Shown: piece after piece, positions 19,980 to 23,967 of the stretch
Layout of the letters: each line of letters starts with the position of its first letter
Position numbering within the stretch: the first letter of the stretch is position 1
Source: a virus
Virus genome (UHGV): UHGV-0289470
DNA length: 28,488 nt
Reading direction: 5' to 3' (one strand)
Translations under genes and position numbers: made by a program
The notes under the pieces: generated by a model
Database searches by the model: none
Seen by the model: only the letters and a program-made list of their open reading frames with translations
What the model was told of the DNA's origin: nothing

Positions 19980-20128
19980 CGGCTGAATACCTCACTGATC
20001 GCTTCTTTGACTGCGCCAGCTACTGGCGCATTAATCCCTTCGAATTGCTGAATATGCCGATCAGTGAAATTCCCTTGCTGGTCAGTCAGGCAAACAGGAT
20101 AGAGCAGGAGAAACGCACACATGGCTGA
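19961..20128 (+). CDS. -1 frame extension of the tail assembly chaperone (GT-like long form)
   Basis: ORF track 19946..20128, overlapping the 3' end of the chaperone; ends a few nt into the tape measure gene. Confidence 0.5.
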   Translation, partial: FFPPGLTAEYLTDRFFDCASYWRINPFELLNMPISEIPLLVSQANRIEQEKRTHG

Positions 20129-21953
20129 ATTTGAGCTTAAGGCGTTGATCACCGGTGTCGACAGGCTTTCTCCCGCGCTGTCGAAAATGCAAAAGAAAAT
20201 CCGGGGATTTAAACGCCAGGCGGAAGAAGCGTCACAGGGTGGGCTGGCGCTTGGTGGAGGACTGGCAGCGGGGCTGACGCTTTCCCTGAAATCTTATGCC
20301 GATCAGGAAAACGCCGCTACCGGGCTGAAAGTCGCCATGATGGATGCGAACGGCGAGGTTGGAAAGAGCTTTCAGGACATCAATAAACTGGCTATTGGCC
20401 TGGGTAACCAGCTACCCGGTACAACGGCTGATTTCCAGAACATGATGCAGATGCTGGTGCGTCAGGGGATCCCGGCAGAAAACATTCTGGGTGGTGTGGG
20501 TAAAGCGACAGCTTATCTTGCGGTACAACTGAAAAAAACACCGGAAGCGGCTGCTGAGTTTGCTGCAAAGATGCAGGATGCTACCGGAACGGCGTCAGAA
20601 GACATGATGGGGCTGTTCGACACTATCCAGAAGGCGTTTTATCTGGGCGTTGACGATACCAACATGTTGTCCTTCTTCACTAAAACCAGTTCTGTTCTGA
20701 AGATGGTGAACAAGGACGGTCTTCAGGCTGCACAGAGCCTTGCCCCCATCAGCGTCATGATGGATCAGATGGGGATGAACGGGGAGTCGGCAGGTAATGC
20801 CCTGCGAAAAGTTATCCAGTCCGGATTAAGTGTTAAGAAAATCAGGGACGTCAATAAAGTCATGGCCCGCCAGAAACTCGGGGTACAGCTCGATTTTACT
20901 GACGGCAAAGGAAGTTTTGGCGGTCTTGATAACATGTTCAGGCAACTGGCAAAGTTGCGAAAACTGACCGACGTTAAGCGAACAGGCGTACTTAAGGCAA
21001 TATTTGGTGATGATGCCGAAACCCTTCAGGTGGTCAATGCCCTGATCGATAAAGGAAAGGATGGTTACGATCAGATCCAGCAGAAGATGAATAAACAGGC
21101 CAGCCTGAATAAACGTGTTCAGGCACAGCTTGGTACGCTGTCCAACCTGTGGGAGGCAATGACGGGGACCGCAACTAACGGTCTTGCAGCTATTGGCGGC
21201 GCATTTTCTGGTGACGCTAAAAATATCACGCAATGGCTGGGGGAGTTGGGGGAAAAATTCACGAAGTTTGCGGATGAAAATCCCCGGGTTATTCGCGGCG
21301 TCGTCGGGCTTGCTGCCGGTCTTGCGATTCTGAAACTGGGATTGATGGGCGTGGGCAGTGCCATCAGTATTGTCAGCAGGATTATGTCGATGACGCCGAT
21401 TGGCATGATTGCGACGGCGATTGCTCTGGCTGCGGGATTAATTATCACTAACTGGGATGTTGTCGGACCTTATTTTAAGAAGCTCTGGGAAACCATTGGT
21501 CCTTATTTTGAGGCTGGCTGGGAACTTCTGAAGAAAGTTTTTGCCTGGTCGCCGCTGGGAATGGTGATCAATAACTGGGGACCGGTTGTTAAGTGGTTTC
21601 AGGATATGTGGGACAAGCTGAAGCCAATTATTGAGTGGTTTACCGACAGTTCCGGTGACACGGTCGATGCCATTAACTCTGCGCAGTGGGGCGCGGGTGC
21701 TTATGATGCTTATGGGACGGGAATACCGACGCGGGGATACACACCTTATCCGGCGGTGGATCCGGCTCAGTCAAACAACGCCTCCGATGCCACAGGCTCG
21801 AATCCCTTCATGATTAACAAAGCTTCTGTGCCAAAAGTTGATGGTGAGATCAAGGTATCTTTTGTGAATTCGCCTCCGGGTATGCGGGTTATGGAAACGC
21901 GATCCAGCGGTTTTGATGTCAGCCATGATGTTGGCTATACGCGGTTCAGGTAG
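20121..21953 (+). CDS. tail tape measure protein
   Basis: 610 aa, Ala/Gly-rich helical protein with transmembrane-like central segments, downstream of the chaperone pair. Confidence 0.85.
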   Translation: MAEFELKALITGVDRLSPALSKMQKKIRGFKRQAEEASQGGLALGGGLAAGLTLSLKSYADQENAATGLKVAMMDANGEVGKSFQDINKLAIGLGNQLPGTTADFQNMMQMLVRQGIPAENILGGVGKATAYLAVQLKKTPEAAAEFAAKMQDATGTASEDMMGLFDTIQKAFYLGVDDTNMLSFFTKTSSVLKMVNKDGLQAAQSLAPISVMMDQMGMNGESAGNALRKVIQSGLSVKKIRDVNKVMARQKLGVQLDFTDGKGSFGGLDNMFRQLAKLRKLTDVKRTGVLKAIFGDDAETLQVVNALIDKGKDGYDQIQQKMNKQASLNKRVQAQLGTLSNLWEAMTGTATNGLAAIGGAFSGDAKNITQWLGELGEKFTKFADENPRVIRGVVGLAAGLAILKLGLMGVGSAISIVSRIMSMTPIGMIATAIALAAGLIITNWDVVGPYFKKLWETIGPYFEAGWELLKKVFAWSPLGMVINNWGPVVKWFQDMWDKLKPIIEWFTDSSGDTVDAINSAQWGAGAYDAYGTGIPTRGYTPYPAVDPAQSNNASDATGSNPFMINKASVPKVDGEIKVSFVNSPPGMRVMETRSSGFDVSHDVGYTRFR

Positions 21954-22016
21954 TGTACAAAATGATTAATGTGTTTTTGTCTGGCATAATTTGGGTTTTC
22001 AGCTTTAAGTAGTTAA

Positions 22017-22022
22017 TATAAT
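22017..22022 (+). promoter_or_regulatory. possible -10 hexamer (TATAAT) of a moron-specific promoter
   Basis: TATAAT at 22017-22022 in the AT-rich spacer upstream of the moron ORF; no good -35 hexamer seen. Confidence 0.25.
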
Positions 22023-22052
22023 CATTCCTTACAAATGATTGAAGGGATGATT

Positions 22053-22547
22053 ATGCGTATCTTTGTTTTTTTTATATCTGCACTTTTATCTTTTAACTTG
22101 GCTGCGGAAGAGTGTAAGTTCAGCTTTAATGAGTCAGAATTAATCTCTTCTATAGGTATTGCACCAGTTAAGCAAGAGATAATAAAGGATGAAGGAATAA
22201 CTAAGCGGCAATATGAATTCAGAAGAGAATTATCTTCTGAAGAAATGCTTAGTGATGACGCTGATGAAAAATATGAGCCGCAGTTTTATATATCTGTTTA
22301 TAATCCATCATGCCCACAAAAGGTTATTGTTTGGTTTTTCAAAGACAATAAAAACACAATGGATTTAAGTAATGAGGTCCTTGCTGGTAGAGCGTTCAAG
22401 TATTTAACTGGTGTTAATGAAAGTATTTTTGAAAATAAAATGAAAAAGTTTTTAAAGGTACAGTCATTTGAATCTTTTGATGAAAGGACAGATTCTAAAT
22501 TTATAAAGAGTGGTGATATTTATTCCATTGATGTTCAACTCAGATAG
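22053..22547 (+). CDS. moron-encoded secreted protein of unknown function (signal peptide, about 164 aa)
   Basis: ORF track 22035..22547; ATG 22053 after AAGGG. N-terminus MRIFVFFISALLSFNLAAEE is a typical Sec signal peptide. The ORF and its flanks are visibly AT-rich and the codon usage is A/T-biased, unlike neighbouring genes. Confidence 0.6.
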   Translation: MRIFVFFISALLSFNLAAEECKFSFNESELISSIGIAPVKQEIIKDEGITKRQYEFRRELSSEEMLSDDADEKYEPQFYISVYNPSCPQKVIVWFFKDNKNTMDLSNEVLAGRAFKYLTGVNESIFENKMKKFLKVQSFESFDERTDSKFIKSGDIYSIDVQLR

Positions 22548-22566
22548 TAATTAAAAATATTAGGTT

Positions 22567-22623
22567 CCCGCCACATCTTCTGCGATGTAAATAACTGACA
22601 AAGCAGATTTGGCGGGTTTTTTT
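22567..22623 (+). terminator. intrinsic terminator closing the moron
   Basis: CCCGCCA (22567-22573) / TGGCGGG (22610-22616) with a structured loop, then TTTTTTT (22617-22623). Confidence 0.45.
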
Positions 22624-22638
22624 GTATCCGGAGTTTAT

Positions 22639-23967
22639 ATGACGTGGAAAGACAGGCTTCAGGATGCGTCATTTCGCGGCGTACCGTTTAAGGTTGAAGA
22701 AGAAAGTGCGGGAACCGGTCGCCGTGTGGAAACACACGAATATCCGAACCGCGACAAGCCCTATACCGAAGATCTGGGAAAAGTCACTTTCCGCCCGTCC
22801 ATCACAGCTTATGTGGTGGGAGATGACTGCTTTGACCAGCGCGATCGCCTGATTGAAGCGCTGAATAAACCCGGTCCCGGCACGCTTGTCCACCCGACAT
22901 ATGGTGAGCTGAAAGTCTGTGTTGACGGGGAAGTTCGGGTCAGCACATCGAAAAGTGAAGGGCGTATTGTCCGCTTTGACCTGAAGTTTGTCGAAGCAGG
23001 AGAACTCTCTTACCCCACATCAGGTGCGGCGACGGCGCAAACGCTGATGTCATCCTGTTCTGCACTGGATGACTGCATCAGTGACAGCTTCAGCGGTTTC
23101 AGTATCGATGGTGTGGCGGATTTCGTGCAGAACGACGTCGTCGGTAATGCCAGCACAATGCTTGGGTATGTTTCTGATGCGATGAAAGTGGTGGATTCTG
23201 CCGTATCGGATGCCGCCAGGCTGTTGCAGGGGGATATCTCGGTACTTCTGCCGCCGCCATCGTCAGGCAAAAATTTCGTTGAGCAGGTGCAGAAAATGTG
23301 GCGTACCGGGAAACGCCTTTATGGTAACGCCAGCGACCTGGTCACCATGATAAAAACGCTTTCCGGTGTCAGCCTCGGCAGCGATCTGCAACCGCGCGGC
23401 GTCTGGAAAACGGACAGTAAAACCACCGCCACGGCGACGCAGCAGCGTAACGTGGTTGCCAGCACCCTTCGTACGACCGCAATCAGCGAAGCGGCGTATG
23501 CCGTCACCCGATTGCCTGCGCCAACAATTTCTGCGGTGATGCAGAATGCCGCAGTGGGGCAGGCAACAACACCCGCGCAGAGCACTGGCTGGCCTTCCGT
23601 CACGCATCCGGCACTGAACAATGCACCGGCGGTGAAAAACACGGTTGACCTGCCGACGTGGGAAGAACTGACTGACATTCGCGACACACTGAATACGGCA
23701 ATTGATAAGGAGTTGTCCCGTACAACCAGTGATGCGCTGTTTCTGGCGCTGCGCCGGGTGAAAGCAGATCTGAATGCGGATATCAACACGCGCCTTGAAC
23801 AGTCTGCACGGATCATTCAGCGCACGCCGGATGAGGTTTTACCCGCGCTGGTGCTGGCGGAGACCTGGTTTGATAACGCGGCGCGTGACGCGGACATTAT
23901 CCGGCGTAATGCCATTACACATCCCGGCTTTGTGCCGGTGATCCCTCTGAAGGTGCCAGTGCAATGA
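22639..23967 (+). CDS. DNA circularisation protein (Mu gpN-like)
   Basis: ORF track 22609..23967; ATG 22639 after CCGGAG. N-terminal motif ..ASFRGVPF.V...GRR...HEYP.RD.PY.EDLG.. is characteristic of the Mu N family. Confidence 0.75.
   Translation: MTWKDRLQDASFRGVPFKVEEESAGTGRRVETHEYPNRDKPYTEDLGKVTFRPSITAYVVGDDCFDQRDRLIEALNKPGPGTLVHPTYGELKVCVDGEVRVSTSKSEGRIVRFDLKFVEAGELSYPTSGAATAQTLMSSCSALDDCISDSFSGFSIDGVADFVQNDVVGNASTMLGYVSDAMKVVDSAVSDAARLLQGDISVLLPPPSSGKNFVEQVQKMWRTGKRLYGNASDLVTMIKTLSGVSLGSDLQPRGVWKTDSKTTATATQQRNVVASTLRTTAISEAAYAVTRLPAPTISAVMQNAAVGQATTPAQSTGWPSVTHPALNNAPAVKNTVDLPTWEELTDIRDTLNTAIDKELSRTTSDALFLALRRVKADLNADINTRLEQSARIIQRTPDEVLPALVLAETWFDNAARDADIIRRNAITHPGFVPVIPLKVPVQ

Follow-up and report, generated by a model that had tools for sequence, protein, structure and literature searches.

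We analyzed a stretch of 28,488 nt from the virus genome UHGV-0289470, here called the window, which is an SfV/SfII-type prophage with a Mu-like contractile tail. Between its tail tape measure protein (TMP) gene and its gpN-like DNA-circularisation/baseplate hub gene lies an AT-rich island (positions 21954-22638) with a single gene, which together with its homologs is called family A. The analysis showed that this accessory gene is optional, has a foreign base composition, encodes a protein with an export signal, and resides in a cargo slot, and this descriptive conclusion is secure. Morons and accessory genes in tail operons are an already well-known kind of element; new here are the slot itself, since the TMP|gpN junction takes four cargo states in this very common group of prophages, and family A, which was shown to be small, enterobacterial and confined to this slot across genera where the flanks were readable. 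The predicted fold of the protein, modeled with confidence and without an informative relative, is also new here. As to function, we tentatively favor a moron-type gene whose soluble periplasmic product would act as an envelope superinfection-exclusion (Sie) factor.

A Four-State Cargo Slot between the TMP and gpN Genes

To survey the slot, 80 IMG/VR loci with a gpN 98-100% identical to that of the window were collected, and 77 of these had a readable TMP|gpN junction. The junction was empty in 42 loci, with 60 nt and no product. The cassette of the window, cassette A, was present in 13 loci (684 nt, 31% GC, + strand) and encodes a protein of 164 amino acids (aa) with a signal peptide. Cassette B, found in 17 loci (680-683 nt, 34% GC, + strand; for example L023:2818-3500), encodes a 176-aa protein with an N-terminal hydrophobic helix that belongs to phrog_5485, of unknown function. 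The remaining five loci carried cassette C (589 nt, 37% GC, - strand; for example L030:2911-3499), with a 148-aa product consisting of an N-terminal transmembrane helix and an oligonucleotide/oligosaccharide-binding (OB) fold domain. Among named phages, Escherichia phage SKA5 is 99% identical to the region, and the flanks share 95-96% identity with SfII, SfV, and SfI, which are serotype-converting phages of Shigella. These three lack the 640-nt insert and have about 60 nt from the TMP stop to the gpN start, including a small hairpin and a T-run; the SfIV junction is likewise empty. The original prediction, made by a model that read the window, had proposed a single-gene optional insert between TMP and gpN, and the 42 of 77 empty modules together with the four empty Shigella phages bear this out. 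Two features of a moron in the Juhala/Hendrix definition, as restated in PMC3594210, were found: optional DNA between the same adjacent genes (13 loci with and 42 without it among the 77) and a deviant base composition (31% GC in the gene and 51-56% in the flanks).

The three cargo proteins are mutually unrelated (hhalign probability below 1%), and all of them have an N-terminal export or anchor segment. For cassette B, a tblastn search of 50,697 phage records gave no match. The cassette C product matched the Pfam family tRNA_anti-like (PF12869) and phrog_8545, which is annotated as "superinfection exclusion Sie-like" in the moron category. Being transcribed in the opposite direction to the late operon, cassette C must be an independent unit with a promoter of its own. 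Relatives of cassette C were also seen elsewhere. In the P2-like Burkholderia phage Carl1 (L103:2044-3865) the relative lies just downstream of the immunity repressor, in the repressor operon, and is followed by a terminator, while in Klebsiella phage ST405-OXA48phi1.2 (L104:3132-3800) it is an opposite-strand insert in a baseplate operon, annotated as 'hydrogenase maduration factor'. Taken together, the features of the cargo and the relatives of cassette C indicate that the slot collects AT-rich genes for envelope-targeted proteins and that at least one of its occupants behaves like a mobile moron of the classical type. The literature searched contained no account of the TMP|gpN slot; the moron reported in the SfIV paper is located elsewhere, between Q and the lysis genes.

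Base Composition and Organization of the Island

The GC content of 300-nt windows across 21900-22649 was 31-35%, against 50-60% in the TMP gene upstream and the gpN gene downstream. When the entire 28.5 kb was examined in 400-nt steps, positions 22001-22400 were the minimum with 33% GC, and every other bin had at least 41.7%. The gene itself has a GC content of 31.3% and a GC content at third codon positions (GC3) of 26%, compared with 51% and 56% for TMP and 56% and 60% for gpN. Thus, the AT-rich island is real, and no other part of the window deviates as strongly in composition. Sliding GC windows were the check that had been suggested for the proposed contrast between an AT-rich insert and GC-richer flanks, and the contrast held.

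The single open reading frame (ORF) that had been predicted, with a ribosome binding site (RBS), was likewise confirmed. It occupies 22053-22547 on the + strand and encodes 164 aa; its RBS, AAGGGA (22042-22047), is separated from the ATG by 5 nt. With a second ATG that lies in frame at 22035, the product would have six additional residues (170 aa); the homologs, which start with MR, and the NCBI Prokaryotic Genome Annotation Pipeline (PGAP) use the 164-aa start. The first part of the gene (22053-22106) encodes the signal peptide, residues 1-18 (MRIFVFFISALLSFNLAA), delimited by the family alignment with a predicted cleavage before EEC. The remainder (22107-22547) encodes the mature domain, residues 19-164, and the stop codon, and was studied by alignments, an AlphaFold model, and the ratio of nonsynonymous to synonymous substitution rates (dN/dS). 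The 99-nt left intergenic region (21954-22052, + strand) contains, in addition to the RBS, a TATAAT hexamer at 22017-22022. Downstream of the gene, an intrinsic-terminator-like element (22567-22623, + strand) consists of a 7-bp stem (22567-22573/22610-22616) with a 36-nt structured interior, followed by seven T residues (T7, 22617-22623).

The flanking genes are those that had been proposed. On the left, the 610-aa TMP (20121-21953, + strand) matched PF10145 with an E-value of 1e-26 as well as phrog_28/17727. On the right, the 442-aa gpN-like protein (22639-23967, + strand) matched PF07157 (DNA_circ_N) with an E-value of 4e-34 and phrog_184, "baseplate hub"; its RBS, GGAG, is at 22630-22633. 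In the window and in other loci, the gpN gene and the following gpP-like baseplate gene are contiguous. In an Atlantibacter prophage (L010:7980-9778), two extra genes for proteins of 506 and 93 aa, neither with a Pfam match, are inserted between these two genes, and this insert may be a second cargo slot.

Distribution and Evolution of Family A

Family A corresponds to PHROG 8976 (full-length profile match, E-value 3e-107), a family of unknown function, and to the RefSeq entry WP_001219113.1, "hypothetical protein". The SKA5 protein WQM42337.1 is 100% identical to the product of the window and is also annotated as "hypothetical protein". The gene had been put forward as the strongest candidate for an undescribed function; this holds for the function, whereas the family had already been catalogued under these entries. 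Nothing was found in the literature on SKA5, the RefSeq accessions, or PHROG 8976.

A word-index search of 5.8 billion proteins returned 16 clusters, all enterobacterial and all unnamed, and an exhaustive profile search of 1.84 billion representatives returned only 12 representatives, four of which are distant full-length members. By tblastn against the 50,697 phage records, matches were obtained only in SKA5 and in Pantoea phage AH07. Among 5,426 complete E. coli genomes, the gpN module was present in 1,094 (about 20%), with 1,230 E. coli copies of the module in all, and cassette A in 85, always on the chromosome and in isolates from gut, poultry, and clinical sources.

Every family A member with readable flanks sits in the same tail module, with a PF10145 TMP on one side and a PF07157 gpN on the other. 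The members located in the slot come from Kosakonia, Atlantibacter, two metagenomic lineages, a chromosomal locus in CP011078.1, the contigs of P0024, and phage AH07, and the distant members P0019 and P0024 are likewise in the TMP|gpN slot. In contig L101, the upstream flank alone was readable, and the product of this flank had no Pfam call. In all six loci measured, the GC content of the family A gene (31-40%) was lower than that of the flanks (47-57%).

Between the window and Kosakonia, the identity was 59% for family A, 81% for TMP, and 75% for gpN; the corresponding values for AH07 were 40%, 63%, and 57%. The dN of family A was 1.2-2.5 times that of the flanking genes. Among close E. coli alleles, the dN/dS was 0.15-0.20, similar to the flanks, indicating purifying selection. 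This selection, and a divergence that follows that of the neighbors, argue for a functional gene that is a long-standing resident of the slot, repeatedly lost or replaced, and not a sporadic recent import. A recent sporadic acquisition does not agree with the presence of the gene in the same slot of diverged prophages from several enterobacterial genera, in rough co-divergence with the flanks.

Cassette Exchange and the TMP C-Terminus

Across the four states, TMP was 99-100% identical over its first three quarters, and the C-terminal quarter (window 21500-21953) diverged according to the cassette. The identity of this quarter was 98-99% for A, approximately 96-98% for the empty state, approximately 94% for C, and 89-93% for B, values that are approximate as the marker-based sorting of loci L019-L098 filed a few B and C loci as empty. 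Such a pattern would be expected if homologous recombination swapped the cassettes, with breakpoints falling within the 3' end of the TMP gene. Alternatively, it could reflect co-adaptation of the membrane-inserting TMP C-terminus with the cargo. The left border of cassette A and the empty junctions have in common only about 17 nt of similarity after the TMP stop (21959-21975). The possibility that this border arose by duplication of the empty-site hairpin and the start region of gpN, followed by decay, was rejected, as beyond these 17 nt the similarity was no better than in shuffled sequences, 67 of 500 of which reached the score.

The Family A Protein

The N-terminus was predicted to be a Sec signal peptide, and by inspection it follows the pattern of proteins secreted through Sec and cleaved by signal peptidase I (SPase I): MR is followed by FVFFISALLSFNL, with a 13-residue hydrophobic core, and by NLAA|EEC. 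All but one of the full-length members inspected have an n-h-c signal pattern that ends in a small residue, although the residues themselves vary; in AH07, for instance, the signal peptide ends with VSA|SEC. The exception, P0023, has no signal-peptide pattern, and its start is possibly miscalled. No lipobox ([LVI][ASTVI][GAS]C) was found, as Cys21 is preceded by A-E-E or, in relatives, A-E-Q, and the protein thus does not have the pattern of a lipoprotein. In the alignment of 14 family sequences, 30 columns were counted as invariant. The invariant positions include C21 and C87, EPQFY (75-79), the DN.NT loop (98-102), and about 25 others, and the two cysteines of the mature domain that had been pointed out originally are therefore, like the signal pattern, conserved. 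We infer that the protein reaches the periplasm, where it would lose its signal peptide by cleavage after Ala18 and form a disulfide bond, predicted to join C21 and C87.

The structure was modeled by AlphaFold2 from a 13-sequence family alignment in which the AH07 row was left out. The model had a mean predicted local distance difference test (pLDDT) score of 87.8 and a predicted template modeling (pTM) score of 0.79; the mature domain scored above 90, and the signal peptide was disordered, with residues 11-19 below 50. The mature part was predicted to adopt an alpha/beta fold in which a seven-stranded sheet is packed with four or more helices. Structure prediction followed by Foldseek had been proposed as a check on the protein; it yielded this confident model on the one hand and nothing in the PDB at E <= 1e-3 on the other. 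In BFVD, which holds viral structures, there was a single match with a TM-score of 0.62-0.67 and 11% identity, the uncharacterised metagenomic siphovirus protein A0A8S5RVB8, which has an uninformative automatic name. The family profile matched PDB sequences at the level of noise only, with a best E-value of 0.014 over 38 residues.

Sequence searches with the family A protein gave no matches in Pfam at E <= 1, none in NCBIfam, and none in PADLOC, in agreement with the earlier statement that it could not be matched to Bor, Lom, Cor, or SieB. It showed no match to the Ivy, MliC/PliC, PliG, or Tsi/Tai/Tli families, nor to the known superinfection-exclusion or defence families, and its only PHROG match was to the function-unknown family 8976.

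Transcription Signals

A possible TATAAT -10 element and an own terminator had been proposed for the gene, and both are regarded here as putative. The TATAAT at 22017-22022 is present; its best -35 is a poor TTTTCA at a spacing of 15 nt. A consensus promoter scan reported no sites, with 3.6 expected by chance in shuffled sequences, and no conserved promoter was found across 10 family A loci. Hexamers resembling a -10 element occur 30-35 nt upstream of the start in five of the 10 loci and were not counted as promoter evidence. In AH07 (L002:3935-3945) and in L013 (approximately 2135-2145), the last TMP codons (G-Y-N-R-F) spell TATAAT or TACAAT, 30-34 nt upstream of the start. The TATAAT of the window is at the same distance, and this may be a coincidence or reflect a -10 element embedded in the TMP gene. 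In these two loci the family A gene follows the TMP stop after only 15-16 nt. Since there is no terminator between TMP and the ORF, read-through of the late operon should express the gene.

The hairpin and T7 downstream of the ORF, with a G+C-rich 7-bp stem, form a convincing structure with a folding energy of -21.6 kcal/mol (z = -2.6). A simple terminator scan did not report the long-loop stem at 22567-22616. Relatives have at the same place a compact hairpin, CCCGC-TTCG-GCGGG, followed by T7 (L004, L006, L010, and AH07). Empty sites carry CCCAC-TCCG-GTGGG and a T-run before gpN, and cassette B has a different hairpin of its own. As hairpins with T-runs are thus also found in empty junctions and other cassettes, a terminator of its own is not diagnostic of the cassette, and the hairpin before gpN may belong to the phage backbone. 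The only unusual feature of the version in the window is a 36-nt structured insertion in the hairpin loop (22574-22609) with an inner stem CUGC...GCAG; an Rfam scan of the island gave nothing below E = 0.4. A further terminator-like hairpin of 9 bp with three G-C pairs lies within the ORF on the - strand (22218-22241), is within the expectation from shuffles, and is probably due to chance.

Possible Functions of Family A

In the exclusion mechanism that we tentatively favor, the ORF would be expressed by read-through of the late tail operon and possibly also, in the lysogen, from its own weak promoter. The periplasmic product would then attach to, or get in the way of, the tail-tip and tape-measure machinery of phages that are crossing the periplasm, and genome injection would fail after adsorption, akin in its effect to gp15 of phage HK97 and with a soluble periplasmic protein as the agent. 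Four observations lead us to this reading. The cargo of the slot is always directed to the envelope; one of the alternative occupants, cassette C, has a Sie-type annotation; family A is tied to one tail module and evolves faster than this module; and HK97 gene 15 provides a precedent in which the block depends on the tail (PMC3594210).

Several points weigh against an exclusion role. Searches of Pfam, PHROGs, NCBIfam, and PADLOC as well as tblastn did not connect the protein with any of the known Sie proteins or defence families. The 'Sie-like' label given to cassette C is only an annotation in a database. A Sie role requires expression in the lysogen, yet no promoter was detected or conserved, and the close spacing to the TMP stop in AH07 and L013 is that of an ordinary late-operon gene. 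Finally, gene-wide positive selection was not seen, the dN/dS being 0.15-0.20. A bolder version of the exclusion reading, which we regard as doubtful, is that family A would represent a new class of soluble disulfide-bonded periplasmic exclusion proteins with an unseen fold, intercepting the Mu-type ejection complex of TMP and hub. The slot would then be a hotspot of the interchangeable injection blockers A, B, and C, and the linked divergence of the TMP C-terminus would stem from co-adaptation with them instead of from hitch-hiking during recombination.

An AT-rich optional cargo gene with an export signal also has the classic profile of a lysogenic-conversion gene. Accordingly, family A might be a host-directed factor without an anti-phage role, which would alter the virulence of the host or the physiology of its envelope, for example its stress tolerance, its resistance to serum or antimicrobials, or its colonisation. 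The presence of the gene in 85 complete E. coli genomes, of gut, poultry, and clinical origin, would fit with this, as would the absence of similarity to defence families. Generic fitness genes, however, usually spread more widely, and family A was found in no other context than the slot of one tail module; it matched neither Bor, Lom, and Ail nor any virulence family, and a promoter for expression in the lysogen was not detected. We consider a host-directed role somewhat unlikely.

The lack of a detectable promoter would be expected of a lytic accessory gene expressed late, whose exported product could spare the progeny abortive re-adsorption to, or injection into, dying cells or debris, or modulate the envelope before lysis; the gene would then not be a moron expressed from the prophage. 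In line with this, the TMP stop and the ORF are not separated by a terminator, the hairpin comes after the ORF, and the gap to TMP is 15-16 nt in AH07 and L013; a late lytic role could also account for the strict conservation of the slot and the co-divergence with the tail genes. Nevertheless, the gene is dispensable, as 42 of the 77 near-identical modules are empty and SfII, SfV, and SfI are viable without it. Its AT-richness in every lineage is typical of horizontally exchanged or silenced cargo, and cassette C, which occupies the same slot, runs counter to the late operon. A lytic accessory function appears unlikely.

In its small size (about 150 aa) and its predicted nature as a soluble, disulfide-bonded alpha/beta protein of the periplasm, the product resembles typical immunity proteins and inhibitors, and the relatively fast evolution of the gene would suit an orphan immunity protein or inhibitor acting against a toxin of the periplasm, such as a type VI secretion system (T6SS) effector, a colicin, or a lysozyme. 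This is improbable, given that Pfam and NCBIfam showed no match to Ivy, MliC/PliC, PliG, or Tsi/Tai/Tli-type families, that there is no adjacent toxin gene, and that family A is absent from T6SS and bacteriocin loci. The idea of a structural tail component or virion assembly factor, to which only the co-oriented position inside the tail-gene block lends itself, is largely refuted and most improbable, because the Sec signal peptide would take the protein out of the cytoplasm, where tails assemble, and because the gene is absent from most near-identical modules and from SfII, SfV, SfI, and SfIV, is of foreign base composition, and matches no tail PHROG or Pfam family.

Prophages of the SfV/SfII type, to which the serotype-converting phages of Shigella belong, are very common. 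A slot in which three unrelated envelope proteins and an empty state are swapped is a compact and directly testable system. It could reveal new injection-blocking (Sie) mechanisms against contractile-tailed phages, with a bearing on host range in phage therapy and on competition between prophages. It is also unusual for phage cargo to have an orphan fold and to be tied to a single genomic position, as appears to be the case for family A. If the role turned out to be mundane or host-directed, family A would be an ordinary moron.

Comparison with Known Systems

The closest comparison is the HK97 gene 15 moron (Cumby et al. 2012), which adjoins the TMP gene; its product blocks genome injection in a manner that depends on the tail of the incoming phage (PMC3594210). 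The HK97 protein is small, resides in the inner membrane, and is related to YebO; many of its homologs are chromosomal. Both HK97 gene 15 and family A are single-gene inserts of deviant composition in a tail operon, next to the TMP gene; both are absent from close relatives and have a product located, in the case of family A by prediction, in the envelope. Unlike gp15, family A has a cleavable signal peptide and a predicted soluble periplasmic domain of 146 aa, shows no sequence relationship to gp15, and has homologs only in the prophage slot.

The lambda-type morons bor, lom, and cor of temperate coliphages resemble family A as optional AT-rich genes for envelope proteins that lie in or near late operons. 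Their products are lipoproteins (Bor and Cor) or, in the case of Lom, a beta-barrel of the outer membrane, whereas family A has neither a lipobox nor a beta-barrel nor a Pfam match. PHROG 8976, WP_001219113.1, and WQM42337.1 represent the same family, in entries that carry no function, localisation, structure, or context analysis.

Sim of phage P1 and Spackle of phage T4 are Sec-exported soluble periplasmic proteins of contractile-tailed phages that stop infection after adsorption. They represent the mechanistic class proposed for family A, although no sequence similarity to them was detected by tblastn in the 50,697 phage records or through PHROGs, and T4 Spackle is all-helical, whereas the family A model is an alpha/beta sandwich.

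The defence hotspots of P2 and P4 are accessory-gene hotspots at fixed positions in phage genomes. The cargo of the TMP|gpN slot differs from theirs in consisting of small single envelope proteins and not of known multi-gene defence systems; PADLOC gave no matches. As in the P2 and P4 hotspots, unrelated AT-rich cargo occupies a fixed position between conserved genes in otherwise near-identical genomes.

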